Positions 8,054-60,596 of a stretch of 64,000 nt of DNA are shown in pieces (within the stretch, counting starts at the first letter, position 1; the number at the start of each line of letters is the position of its first letter). The translations under genes were made by a program, and so were the position numbers. The DNA is from Myxococcales bacterium (GTDB lineage Bacteria > Myxococcota_A > UBA9042 > JABWCM01 > BTVJ01): assembly GCA_045863395.1 (NCBI GenBank), contig BTVJ01000032.1:18159-82158 (forward strand), in the 5' to 3' direction. The notes under the pieces are model-generated. The model saw only the letters and a list, made by a program, of their open reading frames with translations. It searched no databases and was not told where the DNA came from.

Positions 8054-8068
8054 GGCGCCCCTCCGCGC

Positions 8069-11344: not shown

Positions 11345-11358
11345 GACGCCCTCCGGTG

Positions 11359-13734: not shown

Positions 13735-13843
13735 GGCCGCGACGGTAGACCACCACGGCCAATCTGGCAAGGCGCAAGTGGCATAGAGACACAACGAGGC
13801 ACTCCTCCCGCACGGCAGCACTGTGAGCGGTTTCTGGGCGCGA

Positions 13844-18717: not shown

Positions 18718-18831
18718 CGGGTGCGGGCGGTGGCGCCGCGGCCGCCCGCGGCTCCACCTCTCCGAGGCTGCGCGACGACGACCCTGGTCCGCGGGGCGAT
18801 GGCAGCAGAGAGCCCTGCAGGAGGAGTGGCG

Positions 18832-20504: not shown

Positions 20505-20593
20505 ACCGCGGAGGCACCCGAACGGCCCCGCAATCCAGGGACTCTCAGACACCCGATGGACTCGTCATCGCACCACGACGCGGAGGAGCACCC

Positions 20594-27589: not shown

Positions 27590-27605
27590 GGGGGAGAGGC
27601 TCACC

Positions 27606-31963: not shown

Positions 31964-32056
31964 ACGCACCTCCTTGCGGGCGGCGAGTCTACTCGACTTG
32001 TGGGGAGCTGGGAACCCGCCGTGCACATGGGACCGCAGCACCGGGAATGAGCGGCG

Positions 32057-32698: not shown

Positions 32699-32725
32699 GG
32701 GACCTCCCGGCGCCCCGCGGGCGCC

Positions 32726-36499: not shown

Positions 36500-36612
36500 C
36501 TTCCAGTCTCCCCAGGATCTGCGGATGCGGTGGCGGAGTCTCGGACCTCGATCCTCCCTGCCGCACCACCTTACGTCTTCGCCCCCACTTCCGGCAATCA
36601 CCCCGCTCCTGC

Positions 36613-40168: not shown

Positions 40169-40198
40169 GGGGCCTCCTCCGTGGGTCAGGGGTGGGGG

Positions 40199-41698: not shown

Positions 41699-41978
41699 GG
41701 GTCGTCCTCCTGGGTCACGGCTATCGGAGAGACTCGACCGCAGCGCATCTGACACGAGTCTCACGTTCCGACCGGGAAGGCGGACATCTCCGTCGGCACC
41801 GGGCCGGACGGCACTGAGCCGAACACTCCGGACGAAGGAGAGCCCTGGTCCCGGCTGCGCTGACAGCGTTCGGCGAACGAACTTCACGGTTGACAATCCG
41901 AGCCAATCGCGCTGTGCTACGGCTCCGACGAACCCACCCCGGGGGACTCAGCAGCCTACTTGCATGGAGGGAACCACC
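41699..41978. promoter_or_regulatory. Divergent promoter region between the PspA-like gene (minus) and the YbjN-like gene (plus); candidate -35 TTGACA
   Basis: ttcacggTTGACAatccgagccaatcgcgctgtgctacggc at ~41880-41920. GGAGGG RBS before the ATG at 41979. Confidence 0.3.
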
Positions 41979-45600: not shown

Positions 45601-45935
45601 CACTCGCTGGGCGCGAGGCCGAGCGCCGCCTGGGCGGCGACGACGCATTGACCGCGGGCGCCCGCAGCGACCTGGAGCAAGCGACCCGCCTCGCGGCGGC
45701 GGCCGTCGGGGAGTGGGGCTTCGACGAGGCGGTGGGCCCCCTGTTCGCGCCGGCCCTCGGAGACCCGGCCCTGGTGCGACGCCGCGCCCGCGTGTGGCTC
45801 GCAGAGGCAGCCCAGGCGGCGAAGGCGCTCCTCGACGAGCGCCAGGACCTCGTCGCGGCGCTTGCCGAGGCGCTGCTCGAGCGCGAGTCCCTGGACGGGG
45901 CGGCGGTGGCGGAGGTAGCGGCGGAGGTGCGGTAG
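42687..45935 (+). CDS. Multidomain AAA+ unfoldase-protease fusion: Clp-N-like domain, ClpB/ClpA D2-type AAA+ module, CheY-like receiver (REC), FtsH-type AAA module and M41 zinc peptidase (1082 aa)
   Basis: GTG at 42687 with GAGGAG 6 nt upstream. [14 protein letters not shown]...[51 protein letters not shown] and [10 protein letters not shown] match ClpB D2. [52 protein letters not shown] is REC. [70 protein letters not shown] is the FtsH AAA module. [16 protein letters not shown] is the M41 HExxH motif. Confidence 0.8.
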   Translation: [1082 protein letters not shown]

Positions 45936-46107: not shown

Positions 46108-47451
46108 TCAGAGTGGCACCGAGAGGGGCTCGCCGCCCGGTGTCGAGCCGAGGCGTCCGGGCGCGAAGAGGCGCAGGACGGCTTGCGCGTCGGGCGCCTG
46201 GTCGCCGAGCCGCGACCGCAGCCGCGTCGCGCAGGCTCCCGCGAGCGACGCGATCAGCGCCTCGTCGCCCGCCTCCAGGGCACGCGGCGAGAACCAGGCG
46301 GCCTCGTCGAGCAGCGCGAGGGTCGCCTCCCGGGCGCTGGTGTCCTCGCCAGGGCTGGCGTGCAGCAGCTCAGTGCGCAGGGCCGCGACGTCTCCGCCGG
46401 CAGCGCGCACCTCGCCGCGGACGGACAACAGCCGCGCCACCTGGGACGCGCCGCAGGGCAGCCCCAGCGCGGCGAGGGTGAGCGCGGCGACGGTGAGGGG
46501 GAACCGCTCCGGGGCCGGGCCGTCGGGCACGCACCAGGCGCCCTTGGGCTTGATCCGCAGGTCGTTCGCCTCCTCGTCGCGGACCACCTCGCACAAGCGC
46601 GGCACCGACAGGGGGATGGCCTTGAACCCCTTGGACTTGGCGAACCCGTGGTCCGCTGGCATGAACGCCGGCTCCAGGAGCCGTATCGCTGCCCCGATCT
46701 TCGCGAGGCGCGGCGTCGGGTCTCCGGCCAGCACAAGAGCCTCGATGGCCCACCGCATCAGGCGCACCGCGTCGCCGGGGGTGCGATCCTCACTCGCGGG
46801 GGCACTCGGGGCCGTGACATCCGCGGCCGCGGGCGCCCGATCCCGCTGCGGAGCCGCAGCCACCGGGTCGGCCTCGGCCACGGGCGCCGGCACCGCGGGC
46901 TCCGTCTTCGCCCGCACGGGCCGCTCCGCCAGCGACTCGGGCAGCACGTGCAGCGTGTCGCACCACACCCGCACGTTGCTCGCGACCGTCCCCTTGCGGG
47001 CGACCACCTCGACGCGGCGGCCGTGCTCCCGCAGCTTCTCCATGAGCGGAGTGAAGTCGCTGTCGCCCGTGACCAGCACAAAGGTGTGCAAGTGGGGCCG
47101 CGTGAGGAGCAGCTCCATGGCGTCCACGCACATGCGCATGTCCGCCACCTTGCGGCCCGCGCCGCCCCACGCCGTGGCGTCGACCATCCCGATGCCACGA
47201 CGCGCCAGGGTACGCCGCGCCTCCTGGAATCGCCCCCAGTCCGCGTAGGCCCGCATGACGCCGGCGCGAAGCCAGCGCACCAGGTGGTCGAGCAGCTCGG
47301 CCCCACCCCACCGGGCATCGGGCACCAGGTTCTCGTAGTCGATGAGCAGGGCCGTCCCGGCCAGCTCGCGCTGGACCTCGCCCGCTCCCTCGTCCGCCCC
47401 CCTCACCCCCTCGATGACGCTCAGCCTGTCTCCCTCACCGCGCTCTCGCAT
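46108..47451 (-). CDS. NYN (LabA-like) ribonuclease-domain protein with C-terminal extension (447 aa)
   Basis: ATG at 47451 with GGAGG upstream. ALLIDYENLV...VDAMELLL...TFVLVTGDSDFTPLMEKLREHGRRVEVV is the NYN/PIN-like acidic-residue pattern. Confidence 0.72.
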   Translation of the reverse strand: MRERGEGDRLSVIEGVRGADEGAGEVQRELAGTALLIDYENLVPDARWGGAELLDHLVRWLRAGVMRAYADWGRFQEARRTLARRGIGMVDATAWGGAGRKVADMRMCVDAMELLLTRPHLHTFVLVTGDSDFTPLMEKLREHGRRVEVVARKGTVASNVRVWCDTLHVLPESLAERPVRAKTEPAVPAPVAEADPVAAAPQRDRAPAAADVTAPSAPASEDRTPGDAVRLMRWAIEALVLAGDPTPRLAKIGAAIRLLEPAFMPADHGFAKSKGFKAIPLSVPRLCEVVRDEEANDLRIKPKGAWCVPDGPAPERFPLTVAALTLAALGLPCGASQVARLLSVRGEVRAAGGDVAALRTELLHASPGEDTSAREATLALLDEAAWFSPRALEAGDEALIASLAGACATRLRSRLGDQAPDAQAVLRLFAPGRLGSTPGGEPLSVPL

Positions 47452-47582
47452 GGCCGTCCTCCGGGTTGGTGTCGTGAACACCCCCAGAGAGGCGCAAGCG
47501 GAGTCGATCTGACACGGACGGAGAAGGCTCCCAGCAGGATCGTTCCGAGGATGGACGCCGCGATGGCGCCGGGGGCTGCCAG

Positions 47583-49796
47583 TCACCCCTTGCGGCGCAG
47601 CAGGGCGAAGGCGGCGATCAGCACGAGGACGCTGCCCCAGAGCGCCGGGAGCACCCCCTTGTCGGTGAGGTCCTCCATGGTGCGGGCGCCCCAGGGCAGG
47701 GCGAGCACCACCTGGATGACCCCCGCCAGGCCGATGACGAAGAAGAGCAGCTCCGCGCGGCGGTCCATGAGGGTCTCGGCGAGCTGATCCAGGCGGTCGA
47801 GGGAGTCCTGGAGCGCGGCACGGTGGGCGTCGATGCCCATGGAGCCAGCGAGGCGCTCTCGGGCCTGGCGCGCCAAGGGGGAGCCTGCGGCCTCGTGCCT
47901 CAGGTGCCGGGCGAGGAAGCGCAGGTACGCGCGGCGCACGCGCTCGACCCGCGCCAGGGACGGGCGACGGCGCGGCGCCCAGCGGCGTCCCTCCCGGGGC
48001 GCGTCGAAGACCTCCGCCACCTGCCGGTCGAAGTGGGCCAGGGTCTCGTTCAGGAGCGCGCTGTAGGTGAACGCGCCCTCAAGGTCCTGCGCCGGGGTCT
48101 CCGCCAAGTACACCACGGTGCGGCCCTCCACCTGGAGGGGAGCGTCGCCCGCGACGGGATTCACACCGCCGCCGAGGCGCTCCAGGACGGCCCGGGCAGG
48201 CGTGTCTCCGGGCGTGACGCGCACCAGCAGGTAGCGGTTGCCCTCGGCGCGCAGTGTGTTCAGCCACCCGGCCACATCGTCCAGGCAGACGCCCTCGCCC
48301 GTGAAGCGACGGCGCCGGACGCACGGAAGCGGAGCCGCCCCCGGACCGCCGAGGAGCGAGGCGCCAGCGTTGCCCGAAGGAAAGCCCAGCGCCAGCGCCT
48401 GGTCCACCTCCGCCACACCGGACGGCCGCGCCAGAGGCGGACCCGCCAGGACCTCCGCCGCGTGAATCTCATAGGCGGCCGCGACGGCGTGGGTCTGGTG
48501 GAGCGGCTGCGGGCAGGGCTCCAGGTGCTCGAGCAGGATGACCTCCAGGGAGGGGAGGCGCGCCTTCCAGAAGGGCCCGGTGCCGATGGCGCAGATCGCC
48601 TCGTAGGTCAACACCGTCCCGTCCCGCGGAGAGTCGACGATGGTGTGGCCGTGTCCGCGCCCGTCGTACCAGGGGTCGGAGCAGGTGCAGTCCGGGTCGG
48701 CGAAGCGGGGCGTCCGCGGGCGGGTGTCGCCGTCCTTCTGCGCTGCGCGGGCGGCGACCTCCGCCTCTTCGAGGGCCCGGCCGAGGCCCGTCAGGAGAGG
48801 GGCGCGGCCGTCGGCCCTCCAGCCTGGATCGAGGGACAGGACCACCCGGGGGAAGCGGGGCTCGCCGTCGACCAGAGTCGCGATGCGTGAGCCGCACTCC
48901 GCGTAGGGCCAGATCAGATACGGGATGCCGCTCCCCCGCACCCAGTACTTGGACAGCTTGGAGACCGGCGGCGCTCCCAGGACGAGGCCCGGCACACCCT
49001 CGATGACGCCGGACGCCGACGGCAGGGAGACCATGATCCGCCGCGCATGGGGGAGATCCGCGCTGAGGAACGTCGGGAGGTCCGCATCCAGGATCGGCGC
49101 AATCTCTGCTCCGACCCCGTCTCGCCGCCAGGCCGAGACGCCCGGCTCGCCAGGGAGCAGGTCTGCCATGGCATGGATCGGGCGACTTCCGGCGGTCACC
49201 CGCGCCTCCGCGACCCTGCACATTGCCGTGGCCAGGAGCTCGATACCCGTCCGCATCTGCCAGGCGTCGTCCCGCTCCGGGTGCTCCTTGTCACGCAGGG
49301 TGTCGAGGGCAAGAAACGCCATGTGGACCGCATGGGTAGCGGTCTCCATGTGGTCTGTCTCGACGCGGTAGCGGCCAGCGTCCACCAGCGTCGAGTAGGC
49401 GACCAGGGCCGCTGCGTAGGGGGGCAGATCGCCGTCCTCCACGAGGCGTATTGCCAGGTGGGCAGACACCACGCCGTCGAAGTCAGGGAATTGGTGCGTG
49501 ACGATGGCCGGGGACCACGGCGTCCCGGCCAGCGCCTGCCCGTCCCGGGCCCTGCGGTTCCAGTCGGACATGAGGTGGTCGTAGACGTACTCGGGCCACC
49601 GCAGCACCAGCTCGGACGTCGAGGCGCCGAGGGCGTCGCCCTGGTGCTGGTCGAGGATGCCGGGGCCCAGGTGGTTTCCCACGTCCAGGATCACGGCGTC
49701 GGAGATGGGCTGCAGGGGTGTTCCGTGGTCGACGAAGCTGAAGCGCCAGTCCGTGACGAGGCCCAGGTCTCGCGCGCCCGTGCGTAGCTTCCCCAT
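47583..49796 (-). CDS. Hypothetical protein with possible DHH-phosphoesterase-like motif and C-terminal TM helices (737 aa)
   Basis: ATG at 49796 with GAGGAG upstream, 9 bp after the kinase stop. IVTHQFPDFDGVVSAHLA resembles DHH motif I (HxxPDxDGxxS); the other DHH motifs are not clear. C-terminal hydrophobic helices LLFFVIGLAGVIQVVLALPW and VLPALWGSVLVLIAAFALL. Confidence 0.5.
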   Translation of the reverse strand: MGKLRTGARDLGLVTDWRFSFVDHGTPLQPISDAVILDVGNHLGPGILDQHQGDALGASTSELVLRWPEYVYDHLMSDWNRRARDGQALAGTPWSPAIVTHQFPDFDGVVSAHLAIRLVEDGDLPPYAAALVAYSTLVDAGRYRVETDHMETATHAVHMAFLALDTLRDKEHPERDDAWQMRTGIELLATAMCRVAEARVTAGSRPIHAMADLLPGEPGVSAWRRDGVGAEIAPILDADLPTFLSADLPHARRIMVSLPSASGVIEGVPGLVLGAPPVSKLSKYWVRGSGIPYLIWPYAECGSRIATLVDGEPRFPRVVLSLDPGWRADGRAPLLTGLGRALEEAEVAARAAQKDGDTRPRTPRFADPDCTCSDPWYDGRGHGHTIVDSPRDGTVLTYEAICAIGTGPFWKARLPSLEVILLEHLEPCPQPLHQTHAVAAAYEIHAAEVLAGPPLARPSGVAEVDQALALGFPSGNAGASLLGGPGAAPLPCVRRRRFTGEGVCLDDVAGWLNTLRAEGNRYLLVRVTPGDTPARAVLERLGGGVNPVAGDAPLQVEGRTVVYLAETPAQDLEGAFTYSALLNETLAHFDRQVAEVFDAPREGRRWAPRRRPSLARVERVRRAYLRFLARHLRHEAAGSPLARQARERLAGSMGIDAHRAALQDSLDRLDQLAETLMDRRAELLFFVIGLAGVIQVVLALPWGARTMEDLTDKGVLPALWGSVLVLIAAFALLRRKG

Positions 49797-49805
49797 GGCG
49801 TCTCC

Positions 49806-51326
49806 TCAGGCTCCCGGCGGGAGCGTCCTGCACACCCGGAACGTGATCTCGGGGTGACGGGTGTCCGGCGGCACCGCATAGCGCCAGGCGATCCGGGCCA
49901 TATCGCCCGACCCGCCGCGCACGACCCGGAGCGTGCCCGCCTCCGGCCCCGCGGGGTCCGCCCCCCCGCCGTAGGGAGCGTACCAGTCCCAGCACCACTG
50001 CCAGACCGCGCCGAGCATGTCCACAAGAGCGCCGCTTCTGCAAGCCCGCTCCCACTCCGCCTCGGTGGGCAGGCGGAGGCCCGTGGAGGCGCGGTCCCAC
50101 AGCAGGCGCCCCTGCTCCACGCGGTAGGCGGGCGGCAGGCTCCATGCGCCGGAGAGGGCGTTGCAGAAGGCCGCCGCCTCGAACCACGTGCGGGCCGTGG
50201 CGGGGCGGTCCGGCGCGGTGGGGCGCCGGAGCACGTCCGCGATGAGGGCCTCCGTGACCGGCGCAGCCAAGAGCGCGATGGGGCGGGTGAGGGTCACCGC
50301 GACGGGTCCCTCGTCGGGCAGGCGGCCGGGCTCGTCGAGGGGGGAGCCGAGGGTGAAGTGGCCCGGCTCGACCCGGACCAGCACCATGGGGGGGCGCCGA
50401 GAGGACGCCCCGGTCACGGAGTGCGCTGCATCAGAGCGTCCGCCGTGGTGCGCTGCCGCCGGTGCGAGCGCGGGCTGGGCGGGCAACGCCGTGGGAGTGA
50501 CCATCGGCGCCGGCGCAGCGCCTGGCTGCGCGGCCGGCGCAGCGCCTGGCTGCACAGCCGGCGCAGCCGCGAGCGCCTCGCGCCGCGCGGCCTCCGCACG
50601 CTGCCGCTCTGCGGCCTCGCAGAGCTCCCGTAGTCGGGCCTCCGCCTCGGCGGCGCTCGGGCGCCGCGCTGGGTCCGGGTCCCCCATGGCCCGCAGGAGC
50701 GTGGCCACCCGGCCCCGGCGCAGCCCCTCGCCGGGCCGCTTCGGCGGAGAGCCCCGCAGCAGGCAGTGGATCACCGCCGCGGCGCCGTACACGTCGGCGC
50801 GGTCGGTGACGGCCGCGGGATCCTCCTGCTCGGGGGCGGAGTAGCCGCGGCTGCCGAGGCGCTCCAGGGGGCCGGTGAGGGTGCTCCCAGGCAGGCGCAG
50901 GACCCCGAAGTCGGAGAGGAGCACCCGGTCGTCGTCGCCGAGCAGCAGGTTGGCGGGCTTCACGTCCCGGTGGACGAGCCCCCGGGCGTGGACGTGGGCG
51001 AGGGCAGAGAGCAGCTCCGCGCCCCAGCGGAGCGCCCGCGGCTCGTCGATGGGCCCCTCGGCCAGGGCGTCCTCCAGGCTCCCGCGCCGCAACACGGGCA
51101 TGCGGACGAAGGGGCTCCCGTCGTCGAGGACTCCATGCTGGAGGAGCGGCACCACGTGGGGGTGGTAGAGGGACTCGAGGGCCGCCGCCTCCCGCCGGAA
51201 CCGCTCCCGCAACGCCTCGTCGGCGGCAAGGGGGGCGCGCATCACCTTGACGGCCCACTCCCCGTCGTCGGAGTCCCGCACGAGGAGCACCGCCCCCATG
51301 GCGCCGTCGCCGAGGCGACCGACCAC
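49806..51326 (-). CDS. Hanks-type Ser/Thr protein kinase fused to C-terminal FGE-sulfatase domain (506 aa from GTG; N-terminus uncertain)
   Basis: GRLGDGAMGAV (Gly loop), AVKVM, HRDVKPANLL, SDFG and YSAPE. C-terminal RLPTEAEWERACRSG...GAVWQWCWD is an FGE domain. The frame is open for a further 81 codons upstream (to a stop at 51570-51572) with kinase-like sequence (DGGRLRVVGRLG) but no ATG/GTG/TTG. Confidence 0.75.
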   Translation of the reverse strand: MVGRLGDGAMGAVLLVRDSDDGEWAVKVMRAPLAADEALRERFRREAAALESLYHPHVVPLLQHGVLDDGSPFVRMPVLRRGSLEDALAEGPIDEPRALRWGAELLSALAHVHARGLVHRDVKPANLLLGDDDRVLLSDFGVLRLPGSTLTGPLERLGSRGYSAPEQEDPAAVTDRADVYGAAAVIHCLLRGSPPKRPGEGLRRGRVATLLRAMGDPDPARRPSAAEAEARLRELCEAAERQRAEAARREALAAAPAVQPGAAPAAQPGAAPAPMVTPTALPAQPALAPAAAHHGGRSDAAHSVTGASSRRPPMVLVRVEPGHFTLGSPLDEPGRLPDEGPVAVTLTRPIALLAAPVTEALIADVLRRPTAPDRPATARTWFEAAAFCNALSGAWSLPPAYRVEQGRLLWDRASTGLRLPTEAEWERACRSGALVDMLGAVWQWCWDWYAPYGGGADPAGPEAGTLRVVRGGSGDMARIAWRYAVPPDTRHPEITFRVCRTLPPGA

Positions 51327-51873
51327 GCGGAGGCGCCCGCCGTCCAGGGAGGACCCGGGCGGGTGCGGATCGAGCGGCAGCGCCAGCGGGCTGCGAGCGT
51401 GGCCGTGGGTCAGGGCGAGGGCGCGGCGGCCGGGGGCGAGGGCCCCCGAGAGCGTCGCAGCGGGGCCCGCCCGCTCGGCCTCATCGGTGCAGACCAGGGC
51501 GTCGCCTCGAAGCGACGAGGGTGTCCACCACGCGGGAGGCGGGGCTGTGCGGGTCGCGGGCGGGGTGGGTCATCGGCGGCTCCCGGGTGGATGGGCCGGA
51601 GCAGTGGCCCGCTCCGTGGCTGTCGAGGTGTCCGTGCTCCCGTGGATCATCGCAGATCTCCCGTCCTCTCGGGGTCACCTTCGCAGCCTGGCTCGTGCCC
51701 CCCACCCAGTCAGAATCTCGCGTGATCGGGGCTTCGCCCCGAGCCCCACCAGGGGCCGCTGACGCGCCCCCTGGACCCCACGGGGGGCGGCTCCGTCGTG
51801 AGATCGCGCCGGCGTCGCGGTCGCTGGCGCTCCGAGGTGAGTCGCGGAGAACCCAGGTCAAGGGCCCAAGGGT

Positions 51874-52662
51874 TCAAGAGCCAAGGGTTCGCCTCGCGCC
51901 TACGGCGCGAGCCTGGAGAGGCGGATGCCGAGGCCGTCGTTGCGGTTGACCGGCTACCAGACACCCCACCAGCAGCTCCTGCCACGAGCCGCTCACCCCC
52001 TCGGGCACAACCACCGGCTTCGCGACGTGCCCCATCATGATCTGCTTGTCCGTGCCCTCGAAGGGGAGCCGACCCGTCAGCAGCTCGTAGGCCGCCACCG
52101 CCAGGCCGTAGACGTCCGACGGCGGGCCCACCTGGCCGTCGAACATCTCCGGCGCCGCGTACGCCATCGACCCCTGCCCCGAGTGCCGCGACAGGCTGTG
52201 CTCCGTCGCCTTCGCCAGCCCCACGTCACCCACCACCACGCGCCCCTCCACGAACAGCAGGTTCGCCGGCTTCACGTCCCGGTGCACCACCCGCTGCCCG
52301 TGCAGATACGCCAGGCCCTCCGCCGCCTCGCGCACCACCCGCGCCACCTCCGGCCCGGGCACCCCGCCCTGATAGGTGCGCAGCAGGTCCGCCGCGCTGC
52401 CACCCTCCGCCAGGTCCGTCACCAGGTACAGCCGGCCGTCGTCGTCGAAGGCGTCCCGGAAGCGGAGGACGTGCGGGTGAGACAGCCGCGCCAGGAGCCG
52501 GATCTCCCGCAGATCGGCGCCGGCCCGCAGCCCCTTCACCGCCACGTCTGCCACCGCTTCGCCGGCCACGAGCTGCTCCGCCCGCCACACCTCGCCGAAA
52601 CCACCCTCCCCGAGTCGCTCCACGAGCCGATACCGCCCGCCCACCACGTCCGTCGCCCGCAT
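51874..52662 (-). CDS. Compact Hanks-type Ser/Thr protein kinase (262 aa)
   Basis: ATG at 52662 with AGAGGAG upstream. GRYRLVERLGEGGFGEVW, VAVKG, HRDVKPANLL, GDVGLA (DFG replaced by DVG) and YAAPE. Confidence 0.78.
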   Translation of the reverse strand: MRATDVVGGRYRLVERLGEGGFGEVWRAEQLVAGEAVADVAVKGLRAGADLREIRLLARLSHPHVLRFRDAFDDDGRLYLVTDLAEGGSAADLLRTYQGGVPGPEVARVVREAAEGLAYLHGQRVVHRDVKPANLLFVEGRVVVGDVGLAKATEHSLSRHSGQGSMAYAAPEMFDGQVGPPSDVYGLAVAAYELLTGRLPFEGTDKQIMMGHVAKPVVVPEGVSGSWQELLVGCLVAGQPQRRPRHPPLQARAVGARRTLGS

Positions 52663-52747
52663 TCCGTCTCCTCTGGTTACCGCCCCGAGGTGCTCTACCT
52701 CACGCTGCCTTGGTCCAGGACTCCGCCCGCCGGGATCCCACGAGCCA

Positions 52748-53569
52748 TCAGCCCGAGGGCTCGACGACTGCCGGCGCCCTCCTGCGGGGGCTCCGCCGCT
52801 CCCCAGGTCTTCGCCGCGCCGCCCCGGCAACCGCCACCGCCACGCTCACGTTGTCGCGGCCCCCGGCCCCCAGCGCCGCGTCCACCAGGCGGCGCGCCCG
52901 CTCCGCCGCCGCCCCGTCCGCACACGCCAGCTCCGCGATCCGGGCGTCGCCGAGCTCGCCCGTGAGGCCGTCAGAGCACAGGAGCACCACGTCGCCCAGC
53001 TCCACCTCGAAGGATGCGCCCTCCCCCTCCTCGGGCGACAGCTCCACCGACTCCCATGCCTTGGCCCCCAACGACGACGTGAGCTGACCCGCCATGGGGT
53101 GCGACGCCGCCGCCTCCGGTGCGAGCTGACCGAGCTCCACCAGCACCTGGGTCACCGAGTGGTCCCGGGAGCGCAGCAGCACCGCACCACCCCGGAGCCA
53201 ATAGAGCGGACTGTCCCCCGCGTGGAGCCAGGTGACACGCCTCCTGTCCAGGAGCGCCGCCACCGCCGTGGTGCCCATGCCGCGCAGGTCGGGCTCCTGG
53301 CGCGCCCGCTCCACGACCGCATCGTGGCCCCGCCGCAGCGCCTCGTGGAGCGCCGCCCGCGGGTCCCCCTCGGCGGCTCCGAGGGCCGGCAGCGCGGCCT
53401 CCACCACCAGCGCCGAGGCCACGTCCCCTCCCGCGTGGCGCGCCATGCCGTCGGCGAGCACCAGCGCCGCGCCGCCCGGGCGCGGCAGCCACCCCACCGC
53501 GTCCTCGTTGCGCGGGCGCACCCTCCCGGGGTCCGTCTGACATGCCACGTCCCACAGGATGTCCGCCAT
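52748..53569 (-). CDS. PP2C-family Ser/Thr phosphatase (273 aa)
   Basis: ATG at 53569 with AGGGAGG upstream. RPRNEDAV, LADGMARHAGG, DSPLYWLRGG and GGRDNVSVAVA motifs. Confidence 0.78.
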   Translation of the reverse strand: MADILWDVACQTDPGRVRPRNEDAVGWLPRPGGAALVLADGMARHAGGDVASALVVEAALPALGAAEGDPRAALHEALRRGHDAVVERARQEPDLRGMGTTAVAALLDRRRVTWLHAGDSPLYWLRGGAVLLRSRDHSVTQVLVELGQLAPEAAASHPMAGQLTSSLGAKAWESVELSPEEGEGASFEVELGDVVLLCSDGLTGELGDARIAELACADGAAAERARRLVDAALGAGGRDNVSVAVAVAGAARRRPGERRSPRRRAPAVVEPSG

Positions 53570-53683
53570 GCTCGCCTCCCTGCACCCGGCCTTCCGGGGC
53601 GCCTTGCCCCACCAATTCAATGGGCCCCGCCCTCCGGGGGGCGACGTGCCCCACGCGCCAAAACGCCGCTAGCGTACCCGCCA

Positions 53684-54934
53684 TCACTCCGCCATGAGCA
53701 GCCGCCCCGACCGCCGCGCCGCCACCAGGGACTCCGCGGCCCGGCCAGTGTCGAGGGCGCCCGCCTGCTGGAAGGCTGCAAGGTCCTCCTCGAAGCGCGC
53801 CGCCAGGTCCAGGTTCCCGCTCCGCCGCGCCGCATCTGCCATCAGCCCCGTCAGCCGCGCCTGCGCGCCCGGGGAGCTCTCGTTGGCCCGGAGCCACCCG
53901 TGATAGCCGATGTCGCGGGCGATGCGCAGGTTCTCCGCGTCCCGGTGGCGCCCGTGGACGCGCCGGTCTCCCCCCGCCGCGAGCTCCAGGCACAGCGGCG
54001 CCTCCTGCGCCGTAATGACGTCGCCCCGGACGGTCGCGGACGCGCCGATGCTCCCCACCGCGTAGGGCCCTGGCGCCGCGCCGAAGGGAACCGCCACCGC
54101 CACCTCGAGCACGTAGGCAGAGACGGGCGGCTCCACCGCGCCGAGGGGGATGGACCAGGACCCGAGGCGGTCCACGGCCTCCAGAGGCAGGAGCTCGGGC
54201 AGCACCCGCACCGCAGACAGGAGCCGCACCCCGGCGACGGCGCGCAGATCCAGGCGGGCGGCGACGGCGCTCACCTCCTGGGCCGAGCGCACGCGCTCCT
54301 CCAGCTCCGCCGCGAGCCCCGCCGGCTCCGGGGCATAGCAGAAGCTCCCCCGCCCCGCGTCCGCCAGCGCCGCCAGGAAGCTCGCCTGCCAGTGGCGCGC
54401 GTCGCCGAGCCCGAGGGTCCCGATGACGGCCCCCTGCGTCGCCGCCCGCCGCGACGCGGACAGCACCGGCGTCGGGTCCTCCAGCACCCGCCCGTCCGGC
54501 CCGGTCGGGTGCCCGTCGGTGACCACCCACAGGAACCGGGGCCCGTCCACTGCCAGCGCGTCGAGCGCCCGCACGCCTGCCTGGAGCGCCTCCCCGAGCA
54601 GCGTGACGCCCCCGGCGGCGCAGGTGTCGATGGCCGCGAGCACGTCGCTGTCCGCCGTCCGACCCTTCTCCGCCCCGTCGACCAGCGAGGTCACACGGCT
54701 CGCGAAGGTGAGCACCGTCAGCCGGTCCCCAGGCCGCAGCGCCCGCCACACGGTCCGCACCGCGTCCTTGGCCGGGTCGAGCCTCTCGTCCATGGACCCC
54801 GACACGTCGAGCAGCACGACGGCCGCCAGCGAAACTGGGGTCGCCGGCGCCCCGACGCGCACCGCGAGATAGTGCGTCGTGGCCCCCGCCACACCCCGCA
54901 CCGGCTGATTCCACTCTGCTGTCAACGTGAGCAT
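53684..54934 (-). CDS. Cytoplasmic vWA domain protein (TerY-like), 416 aa
   Basis: ATG at 54934 with GGAGGG upstream. MIDAS VVLLDVSGSMDE...TDGHPTG. No signal peptide. Confidence 0.72.
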   Translation of the reverse strand: MLTLTAEWNQPVRGVAGATTHYLAVRVGAPATPVSLAAVVLLDVSGSMDERLDPAKDAVRTVWRALRPGDRLTVLTFASRVTSLVDGAEKGRTADSDVLAAIDTCAAGGVTLLGEALQAGVRALDALAVDGPRFLWVVTDGHPTGPDGRVLEDPTPVLSASRRAATQGAVIGTLGLGDARHWQASFLAALADAGRGSFCYAPEPAGLAAELEERVRSAQEVSAVAARLDLRAVAGVRLLSAVRVLPELLPLEAVDRLGSWSIPLGAVEPPVSAYVLEVAVAVPFGAAPGPYAVGSIGASATVRGDVITAQEAPLCLELAAGGDRRVHGRHRDAENLRIARDIGYHGWLRANESSPGAQARLTGLMADAARRSGNLDLAARFEEDLAAFQQAGALDTGRAAESLVAARRSGRLLMAE

Positions 54935-55128
54935 CGCGCACCCTCCGGGAGCCTCAGGTGCGGCGAGCGTAGCAGATCCTCGGCGAGGGCGCAGCAGCCG
55001 CGTGCGCGCTCGGGGGACCGATGAAGCCTGTCCCTCAGCGACCTCGGAGACCCCGGCAGCCCACAGGGCACCACGGCCCAAGGAGACGCGCTCGATCCAG
55101 GCCCCGATCTCGAGACGGGCCCACTCCC

Positions 55129-58100
55129 TCACCCCTCGTGCAGCGAGGCCCGCGACAGATAGAGGTGAACGACCACGGTGGCGAACAGGGCCAGGGCGGT
55201 CCAGGCGAGGAGGACATGGGGGTACAGCGCGGTCGAGACGACGCCCGCGAACGCGTCCGGGAGCCTGAGCTGCACCTCGAACGGGAGCCCGAGCACGTCG
55301 CTGCCCGCCAGTCCCGCCTGCTCCAGCTTCGCGAGGTCGGCCTGTGATTCCCCCGTCATCACCCGACCCGCGAACAACTGAAAGACAAGAGCCACGATAT
55401 AGCTCTCCGCCATGGTCACGCCGAAGAGGATGCGGGTGCGGCGATTCACCTGTGACATGCCGTCCCGGCCGGACCACCCTCCAGAGGAGCGGCCGTCCAT
55501 GGGGGCAACCACGCGAGAGGCCACCTCACCTTGCATATAGCGCCAGGTCAGGCTTCCCCCGATGGCGACGGCGGCCAGGACCCCCAGCGGGCTTGCGCAC
55601 AGGAGGAGTGTCCAGAGCTCGTCCGAGAGGAACAGGCCGGCGACGACGACGAGCATCGCCCCAAGGATCCTTGGCGCGACCATGCGGACGAAGGGCGTGA
55701 CCCGCGTGACCCGTGCTGCACCATCCGTGGCACGGAACAAGCGCCCCGCTACGCGAAACAGCCAGTCCAGCGAGACCCACAGGACAGCCACGGCCGCAAG
55801 AAGCGCGAAGACCGCAAGCTGGACAGAGAAGGCCCACCCGGTCACGGCCGCGACCTGGCCAGGCGCAAGAGAGGCTCCCGCGAGCCAGGACGCAAGGAAG
55901 GGAGAGACGACGATCAACCCCACCAACCATGGGCGGCGGACGACAGCGAAGAGAGCCCGCGACGGCTCGAGCCACCGCGACGCATCTGCCGCTGCGACCT
56001 CGTCGAGCATGAACCGTCCAAGCATCCAGCGACCCAGGACCTCGCGCAGGCGCGCCCTCTCTTCGGAAGCAATGGACTCCGGGACCATGAGGACCGAGTG
56101 CTCTCCCTCCACCCATGGGCGAGGGTCCTCTCCGAGGCGCATGTGCAGGTCCTTCACGGAGCTCTCATCGTTCTCCGCAAGGAGGTCCCGGACGGTGGTC
56201 AGCCAGTCGCACCGCTCCTGAATGCGGGCACGCAGGTCCGACACCGTCTGGTTGAATGCGTCGACCAGAGGCTGATAGAGCGCAGCTCTGGCTATCTCGA
56301 TCAGGCCGGTGGCGGGGTCATCGAGCTCCCGTAGACACTCCTTGAGCACCACGACGCGTGCGGACAGGCTGTCCATGGGCAGGCCCGCCTCGTGAGCCAG
56401 GCGCCCGATGATCTGGTCAGCGCGCGGCAGGATCCTCCACAACCCCACGATCTCACGGCTGCGCTCCCGTTCCGGGAGCTTCCGCACCTGCTCCTCCATC
56501 TCCTTCACGTAGCCGGCCAGCCGCTTCCTCCCGCCCGCTTCCGCCACAAGATCCGACCAGGAGCCGCCCGCCAGACACGCGAGCTCCGCCAGCCCATTGA
56601 GGGCGTTCTCCTTGGCCCTCACATAGGGGGTCGAATCATCGGTGCAGCGCGCACCGTCGGCGCCTGACGCCAACGTGGCGGCCAGGTCCCGGAGCGCCTG
56701 GACTGTCGGCCCCCGGGCGCCGCTGCCCACCGTCCCCATCAGCTCGTGGAGCGCCGGCAGGAGCCGGTGTGTGTTTACGTGCGCGACGCGCTCCACCATC
56801 CGCTCGATGACCCTTCCATCACAGCCATGGGCCATCAGATCATCGAGGAACCGTACGGTCCGGTCCCAACGAATCACGGACTGCGCAGGGGTAGAGTTCG
56901 CCCAGCCACCGACCACGACCCGCTCAAGGACGATGTCCACGAGGTCACCCACCTTCTTGGGGTCTGTGACAGGACCCCGGACCAGCTCCAACACCCTGTC
57001 CTGCAAGAGGGGATGCAAGTTGATGGGGTAATCGGACCGCTCGAGCTCCACCAGGCTCCCAGCGACGTCCGGCGTCTCCTCCAACGTCCGGGCCAGGGCT
57101 GCGATGAACGCGTTTCGGTACGAGGAGTTCGTCGCTCGGGTTTCGGCGATCTCCCCGAGGCGCTCGAGCATCCACTCCACGAGGGTGAGCAGCGAGACGC
57201 CCATCCTCCGCGCTCGCCAATCGTTGCCAGACATCAATAGTCGCGCTCGCGCTATGGCGTGGGACGTCCGGATGGCCTCGATCCCCCAGACCCGCAAGGC
57301 CTCCAGCGCCGGGTCACGGGCGCCGAGGTCAGACAAATCGAACAGTGGCGTCGGAGGCGGCGCAGGCTCAGCCGCGGGGTTCGCTGCGAACGCGACCCAG
57401 TCGCGCACCCTCCCGAGAGCGAGCGTCACCGCCGGACCGGTCCCGAGAATCTCCAGAGCCCGTGCTTCATCCAAGGCAGCGACGCCGTGAATCTGCGCAA
57501 GTTGCAGAGGAGCATGGAGCTGCAGCGCGCGTGCCGCAGCGCGCATGACGGCCCACGAGTGCCCCTCGTCGCGCGCCGCCAGGTCGGCGATGCGTGGCGG
57601 GAGGGCCTGCTCCGTCAAGAGCACGATAAGGGCGACGGCGTGGCTCCGCGCCGGGCACTCTTCCATCGATGAGAGGGCGGCCAACACCCGCTGCGACATC
57701 CCCGCGAGGTGAAGCGACCGGACCCCCAGCTCGACCGCGGCAAATCTTCGCTCCGCGTCGATGAGGCTGCCACCGCCTCCGCTCGTGGCTTGCGCACACG
57801 CCACGACCGCGCCGACCAGCGTGTCACCGATGGCTCCGCGATCCGCGATGCCCCGGTGCAACGCCTCGGAGAGCGCCTCGATGACCGCGGCCTGTACGAG
57901 GGAGTCTCGCTGAGCGCCCACGTCGTGGGGCCAGAGCCCATCGATGCGGTGGGACACCCGCGAGATCCCGCCTTCTTCAGATGTCACGGTCAGGCCGCAG
58001 CCGGCCACCCAGAGCAGCGATGCCAGGTTGGCGGCGGATTGGGGGGCCTCCTCCACCACCCGGCCGACATGCTCCTGGAGCCGCTTGCGCACACCTCCCG

Positions 58101-58851
58101 CCGGCTCCGCGGCGGTCTCCTCAGGCATGACCCGATGCACCTCGATGGCGCGAGGGAGACCGGCCAGCAGAGACCTGTGGAAGGGCGGCTTCGCTCCTGC
58201 GGGAGCACCACGGCGCGCTCCCTTCCCTGTCTTGACGCTCTCCGCCTTCGCGGGCGGCAGTGCGCCCAGGGTCCCCTGAATCAACAGCTCCGCAGCGCCG
58301 AACCTCTCGGCATGCACATGGGCACTCGACCACTGGTCCAGCGTGGCCAACGCCTTTGCCGCGGCGGAGGCGGACTCGAACACGGGCAACCGCGCCTCCC
58401 GGTCGAGCCAGTCGCGCACCACGCCCAGCGCCCTCTCCGGCGGAGGCGTCCCCTTGCCGCGTTCCAGCTCTCCGATGACGGAGGCCAGCTCGCCAAACTC
58501 CCTCTGGCCGAAGTGCGGTAGAGCCTCGGCCAGAAACCGGAGGACCCCGGAGCGGAGGGCAACAGGCCCGAGCACGGATGGGTAGTGCGACGTCCCTGGC
58601 CCCTTGGCCGATGCTCCATCCGCCACGTTCAGTGGCCTCACCGAGCGAAGGACGAGGCGTACGGATCGAATGGCGAGGGGAGCCCAGCAGACGCCGTCCG
58701 AGATGCTCGTCCAAGAGGCCGGATGTGAGAGCCACCACTCGAGGGCGCAAGCATCCCGCGAAGAGAGAGTCTTTGCGCTGGCAATGCGTGCTGCGCAGCT
58801 CGCAAGCGCAGTCGCTAGCCCGATTCCGCCGGAGCCCGTCTCGCCGTCCAT
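55129..58851 (-). CDS. Giant alpha-helical protein with C-terminal polytopic membrane domain (1240 aa)
   Basis: ATG at 58851 (plus CAT 58849-58851) with GAGGGG upstream. The ORF-track ORF 55129..59502 has an Arg/Pro/Gly-rich N-terminal extension judged non-coding. ~1000 aa helical repeats, then about 6 TM helices in the last ~250 aa. Confidence 0.58.
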   Translation of the reverse strand: MDGETGSGGIGLATALASCAARIASAKTLSSRDACALEWWLSHPASWTSISDGVCWAPLAIRSVRLVLRSVRPLNVADGASAKGPGTSHYPSVLGPVALRSGVLRFLAEALPHFGQREFGELASVIGELERGKGTPPPERALGVVRDWLDREARLPVFESASAAAKALATLDQWSSAHVHAERFGAAELLIQGTLGALPPAKAESVKTGKGARRGAPAGAKPPFHRSLLAGLPRAIEVHRVMPEETAAEPAGGVRKRLQEHVGRVVEEAPQSAANLASLLWVAGCGLTVTSEEGGISRVSHRIDGLWPHDVGAQRDSLVQAAVIEALSEALHRGIADRGAIGDTLVGAVVACAQATSGGGGSLIDAERRFAAVELGVRSLHLAGMSQRVLAALSSMEECPARSHAVALIVLLTEQALPPRIADLAARDEGHSWAVMRAAARALQLHAPLQLAQIHGVAALDEARALEILGTGPAVTLALGRVRDWVAFAANPAAEPAPPPTPLFDLSDLGARDPALEALRVWGIEAIRTSHAIARARLLMSGNDWRARRMGVSLLTLVEWMLERLGEIAETRATNSSYRNAFIAALARTLEETPDVAGSLVELERSDYPINLHPLLQDRVLELVRGPVTDPKKVGDLVDIVLERVVVGGWANSTPAQSVIRWDRTVRFLDDLMAHGCDGRVIERMVERVAHVNTHRLLPALHELMGTVGSGARGPTVQALRDLAATLASGADGARCTDDSTPYVRAKENALNGLAELACLAGGSWSDLVAEAGGRKRLAGYVKEMEEQVRKLPERERSREIVGLWRILPRADQIIGRLAHEAGLPMDSLSARVVVLKECLRELDDPATGLIEIARAALYQPLVDAFNQTVSDLRARIQERCDWLTTVRDLLAENDESSVKDLHMRLGEDPRPWVEGEHSVLMVPESIASEERARLREVLGRWMLGRFMLDEVAAADASRWLEPSRALFAVVRRPWLVGLIVVSPFLASWLAGASLAPGQVAAVTGWAFSVQLAVFALLAAVAVLWVSLDWLFRVAGRLFRATDGAARVTRVTPFVRMVAPRILGAMLVVVAGLFLSDELWTLLLCASPLGVLAAVAIGGSLTWRYMQGEVASRVVAPMDGRSSGGWSGRDGMSQVNRRTRILFGVTMAESYIVALVFQLFAGRVMTGESQADLAKLEQAGLAGSDVLGLPFEVQLRLPDAFAGVVSTALYPHVLLAWTALALFATVVVHLYLSRASLHEG

Positions 58852-59039
58852 ATGCCTGCCCCTCGCGTGGAGTGTGGAGGCGATAGTGTATGTCCACTTG
58901 AAGCCGGCGCGCAATCGTGGATCGGTGGGCGAGAGGCGAAGGCGTGGGACCAAGCTCGGAACCTTGACGGAGCCGCCATCCGCGGGGAAGGAAGCCGCAG
59001 GCAGCGCCTTGACCCGCGAGAGCGACTCCGGTCGCTCCG

Positions 59040-60596
59040 CTACGCGTGGAGGATGGTCACCGCCACCCCTCGGCGAGTGCGGGCGTCCTCGAAGCGGGTG
59101 CGATCCTCCACCGGGGGGGCGACGCTGCGGCGGTCGAAGACCACCAGCCAGCCATGATCCAGGCTGAGGTGGGTGAGATACGCCTCGATCTGTCGGAGCC
59201 CCTCCGCGGTGGGGTCGGCCTCCCCGTCGCGGCGCATCTTGAGCTCCAGGGCCTCCCGCTGCCAGCCTCCCTGGTGGGGCCACCGGACGAGCACGTCGAT
59301 GCGGCGCATGCCCACGCCGTACTCGCGGTCGACGAAGCCGCCGCCGTTGACCACGCGCTGGAGCCAGGCGGAGAGCACGAGCTGCGCCGCCACCTCGTGG
59401 TAGGGCATCTTCGGAGCGAGCGCCGCACCTTGCTCGCGCCAGAATCCGGCGAAGGCGTCGAGGAGGGTCCGCAGGTCGAGGCGCCCCGTGCCGTCTACCC
59501 ACGGGCGGTCCGGGAGGGAGATGTTGGACTCGGCGGCAGAGGCCAGCACACGCACCAGCACCTCCCGGTAGATGGGGTTGGCCACACGCAAGGGCTTGTC
59601 CACGACCAGACCCAGGTCGCGAACGAAGGCCACGTCGTCGTTGTACGCGTCGCCCCCGATGGAGTCTCCGGAGAGCAAGGGCTCGATGACACGGCGGACG
59701 CGGGGTTCCTGGAGCCGGGCCACGAGGGAGTCGAGGTGGGTCTGGCGGGCCAGGATCAGGCGCTCCTTGGCCTCGTCGCAGTGAGCGACGGTGATGGGGG
59801 TCGGCGGCAAGATGCCCACCTCCTCGATGATCTCACGCGCGAGGGCGTTGGCGAGCCAGGGCTGCCCGCCCGTCAGCTCCAGCGCCCGATCCAGCGCCTC
59901 GCCGGAGAAGGGCTGACCCGTCTCGGCCGTGTGCTGGGCATACAGCGCGGCGAGATCAGCACGGCCGAAGACCCCGAGACGCAGCGACTTCGTCTTGACG
60001 TTGAAGGGGCTCGACGACCCGATGTGGTCCGGGTCCGCAACTGCCGCCATGCGGTAGTCGCGCACGTCCCGCAGGCCGCACAGGGCGACCGACCAGGGGA
60101 AGCCGCGCCCGCGGTACTGGAAGCCCGCGCGAAGCTGGCGCAGCACGGAGAGCAGGCTCTCGCCCCGCAGCGCGTCGATCTCGTCGAACAGCAGCACCAG
60201 CGGGCGCGGGCAGGAGAGGCTCCACTCCATGAGGAGGTCGGTGAGCATCCCCGCGGGCTCTGCAGGGATCAGGGTCGGAGGGCGCAAGTCGTCCGGGAGA
60301 TCCAGGCGCGCGGCCACCCTGAGCTGGTGCAGGATCGCGCGCTGCGCCGCTTCGGTGTCTTCCCTCGCGCCGGCTGCCGTCTCGCAGGAGAAGGCCAGCG
60401 CCGCGTAGCGCCCCTCGGCGGTCAAGGTGTGCGCCAGCGCCCGAATCGAGGTGGTCTTGCCGGTCTGCCGCGGCGCGTGGATGACGAAGTACGCCCCCTG
60501 GTCCACGAGCTTGCGGGCGTCGGGGATGCGGTCCAGTGGCGGGAGCATGTAGTGGCGGCCTTCGATGCAGGGCCCGGCGACGTTGAAGAACCTCAT
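59040..60596 (-). CDS. Archaeal-type AAA+ ATPase (ATPase_2-like) with C-terminal PD-(D/E)xK nuclease-like domain (518 aa)
   Basis: ATG at 60596. MRFFNVAGPCIEGRHYMLPPLDR...YFVIHAPRQTGKTTSI (Walker A), LLFDEIDAL (Walker B) and C-terminal RIDVLVRW...REALELKMRRD (D...ExK). Confidence 0.68.
   Translation of the reverse strand: MRFFNVAGPCIEGRHYMLPPLDRIPDARKLVDQGAYFVIHAPRQTGKTTSIRALAHTLTAEGRYAALAFSCETAAGAREDTEAAQRAILHQLRVAARLDLPDDLRPPTLIPAEPAGMLTDLLMEWSLSCPRPLVLLFDEIDALRGESLLSVLRQLRAGFQYRGRGFPWSVALCGLRDVRDYRMAAVADPDHIGSSSPFNVKTKSLRLGVFGRADLAALYAQHTAETGQPFSGEALDRALELTGGQPWLANALAREIIEEVGILPPTPITVAHCDEAKERLILARQTHLDSLVARLQEPRVRRVIEPLLSGDSIGGDAYNDDVAFVRDLGLVVDKPLRVANPIYREVLVRVLASAAESNISLPDRPWVDGTGRLDLRTLLDAFAGFWREQGAALAPKMPYHEVAAQLVLSAWLQRVVNGGGFVDREYGVGMRRIDVLVRWPHQGGWQREALELKMRRDGEADPTAEGLRQIEAYLTHLSLDHGWLVVFDRRSVAPPVEDRTRFEDARTRRGVAVTILHA

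Follow-up and report, generated by a model that had tools for sequence, protein, structure and literature searches.

The window analyzed here, a 64-kb stretch of DNA with a G+C content of about 72% from a myxobacterial metagenome-assembled genome (MAG), carries a run of eight co-directional genes on its minus strand which reads from position 60596 down to 46108. The frame plot of the G+C content at third codon positions (GC3) and the listing of open reading frames (ORFs) agreed essentially with the gene number, direction and coordinates given in a preliminary description of this DNA. The run is flanked by the convergent plus-strand gene 42687-45935 on the side of its NYN gene and by a divergent gene starting from 60587 on the other side. 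Two units stand out within it. One is a triad of a vWA protein, a PP2C phosphatase and a Hanks-type kinase. The other is a second Hanks kinase carrying an FGE domain, followed by a gene for a 737-amino-acid (aa) protein which joins a DHH-like to a CorA-like part. We tentatively read the run as a patch of a conflict island and not as one conserved eight-gene system, with the triad and the kinase-FGE/DHH-CorA unit probably acting together as a kinase-gated, possibly nucleotide-gated, membrane effector; we give this reading a little less than an even chance. The new element appears to be the unannotated DHH-like::CorA-like family and its linkage to kinases.

Domains were assigned by Pfam, NCBIfam and PADLOC searches, catalytic residues by inspection of motifs, and transmembrane (TM) segments by hydrophobicity. 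These searches recovered the vWA, PP2C, Hanks kinase (two), FGE, NYN and AAA domains of the preliminary description. The genes of the two units are, in gene order:

53684..54934, minus strand: vWA protein of 416 aa (Pfam VWA 2.7e-11, VWA_2, VWA_3)
52748..53569, minus strand: PP2C Ser/Thr phosphatase of 273 aa (Pfam PP2C_2 1.4e-12)
51874..52662, minus strand: Hanks-type Ser/Thr kinase of 262 aa, kinase domain only (Pfam Pkinase 3e-43)
49806..51326, minus strand: Hanks kinase with a C-terminal FGE-sulfatase (C-type-lectin-like) domain (Pkinase 8.6e-31, FGE-sulfatase 2.1e-21)
48561..49796, minus strand: N-terminal ~412 aa of the 737-aa protein, putatively a divergent DHH/DHHA1-like domain (family alignments, weak Pfam DHH match, weak Foldseek match)
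47583..48560, minus strand: C-terminal ~325 aa of the 737-aa protein, CorA-like module (AlphaFold2 (AF2)/Foldseek, PADLOC CorA-like models, TM segments)

The 737-aa protein matched no Pfam or NCBIfam family (Pfam at E <= 0.01), and a search of the PDB with the profile of its family gave nothing relevant. An AF2 model built on 30 sequences reached a pLDDT of 83 and a pTM of 0.74. The C-terminal module combines an alpha/beta part in the cytoplasm with a long stalk helix and a pair of TM helices (aa 680-706 and 713-735). Among the top 20 Foldseek matches of this module T. maritima CorA occupied ranks 1-17 and 20 and the ZntB soluble domain ranks 18-19; the best CorA matches had a probability of 0.97-0.99 across ~325 columns. 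The PADLOC models for CRISPR-type CorA-like proteins (PDLC01174/01043) matched the window protein with 7.6e-5 and 9.4e-5 and were found in 21 of 30 family members, with a best value of 4e-15. The GMN motif is absent from the protein, and no Pfam CorA match was obtained. Judged from profiles and the predicted structure, the C-terminal module is a homologue of the CorA effectors that type III CRISPR systems employ.

The N-terminal part contains the conserved motifs LDxH (49-51), HxxPDxD (101-107), VDxG (139) and DPWYDGRGH (374-382). In an alignment of 63 diverse sequences the residues D49, H51, P104, D105, D107, E346, R364 and DPWYDGR (374-380) were invariant, and D38, H101, D139 and D388 nearly so. 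The DxH motif reads DHH in the family consensus and DQH in the window protein, and by eye the stretch GRGH (aa 379-382) was likened to the GGGH of DHHA1. The earlier suggestion of a DHH phosphoesterase is convincing only at the level of the family, because 50 of the 63 members matched Pfam DHH (PF01368) weakly, with a best value of 1.1e-5 and no other family recurring, while the window protein alone gave E = 0.14 (12.8 bits at a cutoff of 28.1). Apparently, the N-terminal ~412 aa form a divergent, catalytically competent DHH/DHHA1-like phosphoesterase domain which is unannotated.

The gene of the 737-aa protein follows that of the kinase-FGE protein after only 9 bp, the distance reported before, and the TGA stop codon of the kinase gene falls within the Shine-Dalgarno sequence (GAGGAG) of the 737-aa gene. 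Since, in addition, other genomes encode the DHH-like domain in fusion with Hanks kinases, the two proteins are supported by their genes as a functionally linked and translationally coupled pair. The kinase retains its DFG, HRDxKxxN and APE motifs and is presumed to be a sensor kinase whose ligand would be sensed by the C-terminal FGE domain. For this domain no template repeat of a diversity-generating retroelement was found; the sole match was to a second, paralogous FGE gene (31.0-31.7 kb), which shows patches of ~70% nucleotide identity. A 24-nt tandem duplication at 50509-50556, with copies that are 92% identical, lies in the Ala/Pro-rich linker that connects the kinase to the FGE domain.

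The comparison with other genomes revealed 37 relatives of the 737-aa protein with lengths of 700-790 aa. A genome scan yielded 69 loci from many phyla, and the domain is present in at least 69 species-level genomes of Myxococcota, Planctomycetota, Acidobacteriota, Bacteroidota, Spirochaetota, Campylobacterota, Bacillota and one archaeon; viral relatives were not found. The ORFs with this domain were sorted into six classes, and fusions were confirmed by BLASTP and Pfam:

Class (a): DHH-like domain with the CorA-like module of two TM helices
Class (b): Hanks kinase followed by the DHH-like domain (11 clear cases and 3 fragmented)
Class (c): DHH-like domain followed by a kinase (2 cases)
Class (d): stand-alone DHH-like protein of 310-530 aa
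Class (e): DHH-like domain, ~700 aa and a bundle of 5-6 TM segments, 1330-1435 aa in total
Class (f): TCAD9 followed by the DHH-like domain

The clear fusions of class (b) were found at L014, L038-41, L043, L052, L058, L066, L070 and L079. At L068, L072 and L080 a fragmented ORF has the kinase immediately upstream of the DHH-like domain; these are probably kinase fusions as well. The reverse order occurs at L035 and L073, and the fusion to the kinase-like TCAD9 at L013. In total, ~16 loci have a fusion of the DHH-like domain to a Hanks kinase, and one more has a fusion to TCAD9. The kinase-DHH-like fusions do not contain the CorA module.

In order to compare gene neighborhoods, all ORFs located up to 8 kb from 76 other genes of the DHH-like family were searched with phmmer, the window proteins serving as queries. 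This targeted search took the place of an all-vs-all clustering of neighboring ORFs, in which antisense ORFs and kinase fusions acted as confounders. Kinases were found in 27 loci and FGE proteins in 4; the NYN, PP2C, vWA, AAA and 1240-aa proteins of the run were found in none. Kinases 37-46% identical to kinase-FGE lie within ~6 kb of non-fused members at L001, L049, L057, L064, L071 and L075. The neighbors also include typical immune genes, namely NACHT, nSTAND1 and NPHP3_N NTPases, vWA and CHAT proteins, and BrxC-like ATPases with S8 peptidases. At L046 a TIR-FGE protein is encoded 13 bp downstream of the DHH-like family gene, at L003/L004 an unrelated vWA gene lies directly upstream, and two members (L009, L013) reside on integrative or conjugative elements. 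No cas genes were present in the Pfam-annotated neighborhoods of nine relatives.

Several members of the family deserve separate mention. Class (e) proteins were encountered in Acidobacteriota and Bacteroidota (L057, L061, L063, L064, L069, L071, L074-L076, L078, L083). Five Acidobacteriota loci (L049, L057, L064, L071, L075) combine the DHH-like gene with a phosphonate-binding-protein-like gene and a kinase of the kinase-FGE type. One of these, L049 of Thermoanaerobaculia, has its kinase gene at 2691-5351 and carries the DHH-like (433 aa) and CorA-like (306 aa) parts at 7059-9344 as separate adjacent ORFs, a split gene or a frameshift. In Arcobacter (L044, 8547-10936) and Sulfurimonas (L062, 5611-8006) a stand-alone DHH-like protein of 310 aa is paired with an unannotated protein of ~485 aa, the stop codon of the latter gene overlapping or abutting the start of the former. 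The Arcobacter pair is flanked by two large STAND-type NTPases, and a homologue of the ~485-aa protein is encoded near a stand-alone DHH-like gene in the gamma proteobacterium NOR5-3 (L056). The only archaeal match came from a Woesearchaeota MAG (L037), where the domain occupies aa ~848-1246 of an ORF of at least 4617 aa.

The vWA gene is separated by 114 nt from the PP2C gene, which is followed after 85 nt by the kinase gene. The vWA protein has an intact MIDAS motif (DVSGS, aa 43-47), and its C-terminal ~200 aa matched no family. The metal-binding motifs of the phosphatase (RxxNED, DG, GDS, DN) are intact, and the protein matched NCBIfam Stp1/IreP with 2.9e-49, which is under the cutoff of that model. 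The kinase shows the motifs GEGGFG, VAVK, HRDVKPAN and APE and, at aa 146 of the protein encoded by 51874-52662, DVG in place of DFG, as had been noticed before. It consists of the kinase domain only, with neither a C-terminal zinc ribbon nor an OB fold. Just two true relatives of the vWA protein were detected (P0040 and P0041, 39-43% identity). The gene of P0040 (L010) has kinase-FHA and PP2C neighbors, the PP2C being 50% identical to that of the window, and the gene of P0041 (L012) has a kinase-FGE neighbor whose kinase domain is 42% identical to the bare kinase of the triad. Both relatives are again found beside kinase-FHA and PP2C or kinase-FGE genes; consequently, the association of vWA, kinase and PP2C is real.

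The gene content supports a phospho-switch of the TerY-P type, the triad of the vWA protein TerY, PP2C and a Ser/Thr kinase which is credited to Anantharaman et al. 2012 and listed as an accessory of CoCoNuTs in PMC10542128. The TerY-P-like designation of the preliminary description holds for the domain triad and for the vWA relatives near kinase and PP2C genes. It does not extend to the vWA protein itself, which by sequence is not TerY-like. This protein matched no PADLOC family at E <= 0.01, and the phosphatase matched only PDC-M21C in PADLOC. A tblastn search of the vWA protein against 72,556 plasmids gave no ter-operon TerY, only weak vWA-domain matches, two of which were inspected and turned out to be YfbK-like or other non-ter vWA proteins. 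We take PADLOC and the plasmid set to contain TerY-P models and ter operons, respectively.

How might the two units work together? TerY-P triads are experimentally active anti-phage modules which attach to varied effectors (PMC10542128; bioRxiv 10.1101/2022.08.12.503731), and control of a membrane effector by the triad would therefore be plausible. The analysis shows which domains are present, what they are homologous to, how they are fused or placed side by side, and where conservation is lacking; every biochemical step of the following scheme is inferred. A ligand derived from an invader would bind to the FGE domain and switch the kinase on. Phosphorylation of the DHH-like domain and/or of the vWA protein would then cause the CorA-like pore to open or to assemble, and the open pore would lead to ion leakage and to growth arrest or death of the infected cell. 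The PP2C phosphatase would undo the phosphorylation and so set the threshold. The DHH-like domain might either hydrolyze a phosphodiester signal, as NrN does with SAM-AMP beside the CRISPR CorA, or serve as a regulated gate. The 737-aa protein, located in the inner membrane, would thus probably be a phospho-controlled effector of cell suicide or dormancy.

A number of observations, in this and the following two paragraphs, weigh against this scheme. All DHH matches of the family remain below the Pfam gathering threshold, the DxH motif sits N-terminal to DxD, unlike in canonical DHH proteins, and the best fold match of the N-terminal part, the DHH/DHHA1 domain of GdpP, is weak (Foldseek E = 0.17). 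The TM-scores of the 737-aa protein to CorA are low as well (0.22-0.26). The N-terminus of kinase-FGE is uncertain: the coding GC3 signal runs ~50 codons upstream of GTG 51326 to about 51480, an ATG at 51573 lies upstream in another frame, and a frameshift near 51490, caused by MAG assembly or real, is possible. Kinases are abundant in Myxococcota and Planctomycetota, so that the proximity of kinases to non-fused family members is weak evidence by itself.

The arrangement of the run bears on the alternative that survives best, according to which independent modules are packed side by side and the triad does not regulate the DHH-CorA protein. We consider this unlikely. It would explain why the triad genes never co-occur with the 76 other DHH-like family genes, near which phmmer detected neither PP2C nor vWA genes, so that the triad and the kinase-FGE/DHH-CorA pair are never found together elsewhere. 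It would also fit the vWA relatives, which have their own kinase or PP2C and no DHH-CorA gene on their short contigs. Most intergenic gaps measure 85-550 nt, with 547 nt between the two kinases (51327-51873), so that a single operon is uncertain; a scan of the run for promoters and terminators gave nothing callable and is uninformative in DNA of 72% G+C. Moreover, other unrelated conflict modules crowd the window. Nevertheless, all genes of the run point in the same direction with no gene of the opposite strand intervening, and the effectors to which TerY-P triads are attached are known to be diverse (PMC10542128). In addition, the triad kinase is devoid of a sensor or output domain; its L012 counterpart (42% identity), by contrast, carries an FGE domain, and this suggests that the two kinases of the window split one role.

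The nature of the trigger is the subject of a second alternative, which we rate as rather improbable. Here the pore would open on a phosphodiester nucleotide, the fused DHH-like domain would degrade this signal, and the kinases would only modulate the response. The CRISPR-type CorA to which the module is homologous is one of a group of effectors obligately paired with or fused to a DHH phosphodiesterase (PMC10600005), and none of the residues of the DHH-like domain which putatively bind metal or take part in catalysis varies among the 63 sequences. TPR-class III adenylate/guanylate cyclases of ~620-640 aa are encoded beside DHH-like genes in six loci (L070 11087-12973, L072 11086-12972, L040 6301-8229, L066 6861-8524, L001 5529-7394, L045 ~18545-19087), one of them just 7 bp downstream of a kinase-DHH-like fusion. 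These cyclases point to gating by a nucleotide rather than by phosphorylation; the signal synthase would be unlinked or neighboring, and turnover of a cyclic-nucleotide signal may be a task of the DHH-like domain. NUDIX and metallophosphoesterase genes are present elsewhere in the window. On the other side, the window yielded no cyclase, CD-NTase or Cas10 (tblastn with three of the cyclases was empty), no CRISPR array (array scan) and no Cas family (Pfam and PADLOC domain scans of ~30 window ORFs). Kinase fusions (~16 loci) also outnumber cyclase neighbors (6); the fusions occur without the CorA module. On the whole, the kinase fusions, together with the one to TCAD9, favor phosphorylation as the trigger of the pore, whereas the six cyclases and the invariant catalytic-looking residues favor a nucleotide.

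The three remaining genes of the run are the following:

59040..60596, minus strand: AAA+ ATPase with a PD-(D/E)xK-type motif (Pfam AAA_22 4.9e-8, AAA_16)
55129..58851, minus strand: protein of 1240 aa, predicted all-alpha, with ~5-6 TM segments at aa 974-1234 (coding-frame bias)
46108..47451, minus strand: NYN ribonuclease-like protein, 447 aa from ATG 47451 (Pfam NYN 6.4e-23, 82.3 bits at a cutoff of 24.2)

The NYN protein contains the conserved acidic motifs IDYEN and GDSDF. For its gene ATG 47451, which is preceded 5 nt upstream by GGAGGA, is a likelier start than GTG 47586 and leaves a gap of 131 nt after the 737-aa gene instead of an overlap. An OST-HTH/LOTUS domain considered for its C-terminal ~280 aa was rejected, as no Pfam match appeared at E <= 1. 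A metagenome scan with the NYN protein gave one short relative on a 1.2-kb contig. The protein is possibly an accessory second effector; its linkage to the other genes has no comparative support.

Both a word-indexed search covering 5.8 billion proteins and an exhaustive HMMER search over 1.84 billion representatives returned, for the 1240-aa protein, only the protein itself, and it matched nothing in Pfam, NCBIfam or PADLOC. The C-terminal TM bundle previously reported for it was confirmed, with ~5-6 TM segments. Its single-sequence AF2 model was unusable (pLDDT 41). The G+C content of the gene is 0.68-0.70 and its GC3 ~0.8, compared to 0.75 and > 0.9 in the flanking genes, which is consistent with recent acquisition or fast evolution. 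A relationship to the class (e) DHH-like proteins was rejected, since phmmer and the hidden Markov model (HMM) of that class both miss the protein; the likeness is architectural only.

The AAA protein shows a Walker A (GKT) and a Walker B (DEID) motif and a C-terminal E425...D434...E451-x-K453 motif, which is invariant in three sequences including two cyanobacterial plasmid homologues (48% identical). The earlier PD-(D/E)xK assignment is borne out by this motif and not by profiles: the C-terminal 286 aa gave no match to a PD-(D/E)xK HMM at E <= 1. Full-length homologues with 46-51% identity are stand-alone and multi-copy on cyanobacterial plasmids and were also found in a Nonomuraea record of PLSDB. 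The two contexts inspected, with neighbors such as parAB and purT, are unrelated to the run. By the available sequence comparisons, the 1240-aa protein and the AAA/PD-(D/E)xK gene are neighbors only.

These results bear directly on the signalling-controlled nucleic-acid-targeting system proposed in the preliminary description, taken here as one system of all eight genes with the NYN and PD-(D/E)xK proteins as effectors and the 1240-aa protein as sensor or anchor. In its favor, the genes are co-directional, the catalytic residues of the NYN domain and the PD-(D/E)xK motif proved intact on inspection, TerY-P triads occur together with nuclease systems, CoCoNuTs among them (PMC10542128), and NYN accompanies CorA and NrN in the type III CRISPR locus of B. 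fragilis (PMC11346440). However, the synteny check showed that the 1240-aa, AAA and NYN neighbors are not conserved with the triad or with the DHH-like family. No conserved role can be claimed for the 1240-aa protein, which has no homologue in either protein search, the AAA/PD-(D/E)xK homologues stand alone in unrelated contexts, and the NYN gene, missing from all other loci examined, lies 131 nt away with its own Shine-Dalgarno sequence. The proposal is largely refuted by the absent synteny and now appears very improbable. Since the best-supported effector is a CorA-like membrane channel and not a nuclease, nucleic-acid-targeting system is not the best description either. A housekeeping role of the kinases, CorA-like protein and vWA protein as a kinase-regulated divalent-cation channel with a metal-sensing vWA switch in ion homeostasis or development, for which the CorA fold, the MIDAS metal site, the very many kinases of myxobacteria and the original proposal of TerY-P as a metal-sensing switch (Anantharaman 2012, cited in PMC10542128) could be adduced, is scarcely credible in view of the missing GMN signature and Pfam CorA match, the patchy spread over phyla and on integrative or conjugative elements (L009, L013), the TIR, STAND, CHAT and BrxC-like neighbors and the surrounding conflict island.

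The 64-kb window as a whole looks like one conflict-system (immunity) island. Identical database entries of the 737-aa and vWA proteins are the hypothetical proteins AMXMBFR64_33510 and AMXMBFR64_33550 of "MAG: Myxococcales bacterium". CHAT-NUDIX-FGE, Tubulin_2, DUF6782, DO-GTPase2-like, PspA, metallophosphoesterase, TraD/HerA-like and FtsH-like proteins are also encoded in the window, which in this respect fits the conflict islands of multicellular bacteria (Kaur et al., PMC7159879). Scans of the window for tRNA genes and Rfam families were empty. The plus-strand gene 42687-45935 next to the NYN gene encodes a protein of 1082 aa with a ClpA/ClpB-type AAA domain (aa ~130-305), a REC domain (460-546) and an FtsH-type AAA domain with M41 peptidase (~650-1076), an unusual architecture for an FtsH-like protease; it also matches the anti-phage IetA/IteA ATPase models. 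The genes at 30983-36748 (minus strand) form an apparent operon for a 1340-aa CHAT protein, a NUDIX protein and an FGE-sulfatase protein of 357 aa. Another run, at 1-13881 (minus strand), consists of five genes for very large proteins (613 to 1445 aa) and resembles a further conflict system; it includes Tubulin_2 at 8069-12145 and the putative metallopeptidase DUF6782 at 1842-6176, the others having no Pfam family. A TraD/TrwB/HerA-like ATPase is encoded at 20081-22876 (plus strand) and a calcineurin-like metallophosphoesterase at 27393-28376 (plus strand). The product of the minus-strand gene 39278-40198 is weakly DO-GTPase2-like (E = 2.3e-4), and 41009-41947 on the same strand encodes a PspA/IM30 protein. 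Gene runs in conflict islands of this kind should not be read as single systems before synteny has been checked.

As a stand-alone anti-phage system, TerY-P was reportedly described by Gao et al. in 2020. The window resembles TerY-P in its MIDAS-containing vWA protein, PP2C and Hanks kinase, which are adjacent and co-directional, and the relatives of the vWA protein keep kinase or PP2C neighbors. TerY-P kinases carry a zinc ribbon (CoCoNuT type) or an OB fold (Gao 2020 type), whereas the triad kinase of the window has neither. Further differences are a vWA protein without a PADLOC model, the absence of ter genes from the window, and the second kinase with its FGE domain.

The NTP- or kinase-regulated conflict systems of multicellular bacteria make use of FGS/FGE sensors, STAND NTPases, TCAD, CHAT and tubulin proteins (PMC7159879; PMC10907252). 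Compared to these systems (Kaur et al. 2020; Dore et al. 2024), the myxobacterial host, the CHAT, Tubulin_2 and FGE proteins and the kinase-FGE architecture of the window match, as do the fusion of a DHH-like relative to TCAD9 and the NACHT, nSTAND1, NPHP3_N and TIR-FGE neighbors in other genomes. The window differs in having no MoxR ATPase and no template repeat of a diversity-generating retroelement. Kaur et al. (PMC7159879) mention neither DHH nor CorA.

The canonical CorA/ZntB channels (T. maritima CorA, PDB 2iub, 8tme) are the best structural match to the C-terminal 325 aa of the 737-aa protein. This protein differs from them by the missing GMN motif and Pfam CorA match, by low TM-scores and by its extra N-terminal enzyme-like domain of 410 aa.

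Among known systems the nearest is the CorA/NrN(/NYN) ancillary module which accompanies SAM-AMP-signalling type III CRISPR systems. In this module CorA acts as the membrane effector, while the signal is degraded by NrN, a DHH enzyme sometimes fused to CorA (PMC10600005, PMC11346440); a NYN gene is found in the same CorA/NrN locus of B. fragilis (PMC11346440). Unlike the window, in which none of these was found, such systems contain Cas10, cas genes and a CRISPR array. The DHH-like domain of the window also differs by its Pfam score far under the threshold, the order of its motifs and the family-specific DPWYDGRG. Its family partners instead with Hanks kinases, STAND NTPases, FGE proteins and class III cyclases, and NYN is not conserved with it, unlike the linked NYN gene of B. 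fragilis. The likeness consists in a CorA-like membrane module, a DHH-superfamily-like domain, which is fused to it here, and a NYN gene immediately downstream. By analogy, the logic is probably the same in both cases, a toxic membrane pore which is kept in check by an attached phosphoesterase.

CorA effectors paired with a DHH phosphodiesterase have so far been studied experimentally in SAM-AMP-signalling type III CRISPR systems. The same pairing in one polypeptide without CRISPR genes would point to a portable effector cassette that, in the window and in dozens of genomes, is wired to Hanks kinases, FGE sensor domains, STAND NTPases or cyclases. If this is true, protein phosphorylation or another nucleotide signal could stand in for Cas10 as the trigger. 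The unannotated domain family has clear invariant residues, and the kinase-FGE and DHH-CorA genes form a compact two-gene unit of ~3.8 kb. It is possible, though doubtful, that the ~400-aa DHH-like DPWYDGRG domain is an undescribed and widespread immune component which couples Hanks kinases, STAND NTPases or class III cyclases to membrane effectors. The logic of CorA/NrN, which so far is known only from SAM-AMP-signalling type III CRISPR, would then be gated by phosphorylation or by a nucleotide signal that this domain hydrolyzes, and would also operate outside CRISPR.

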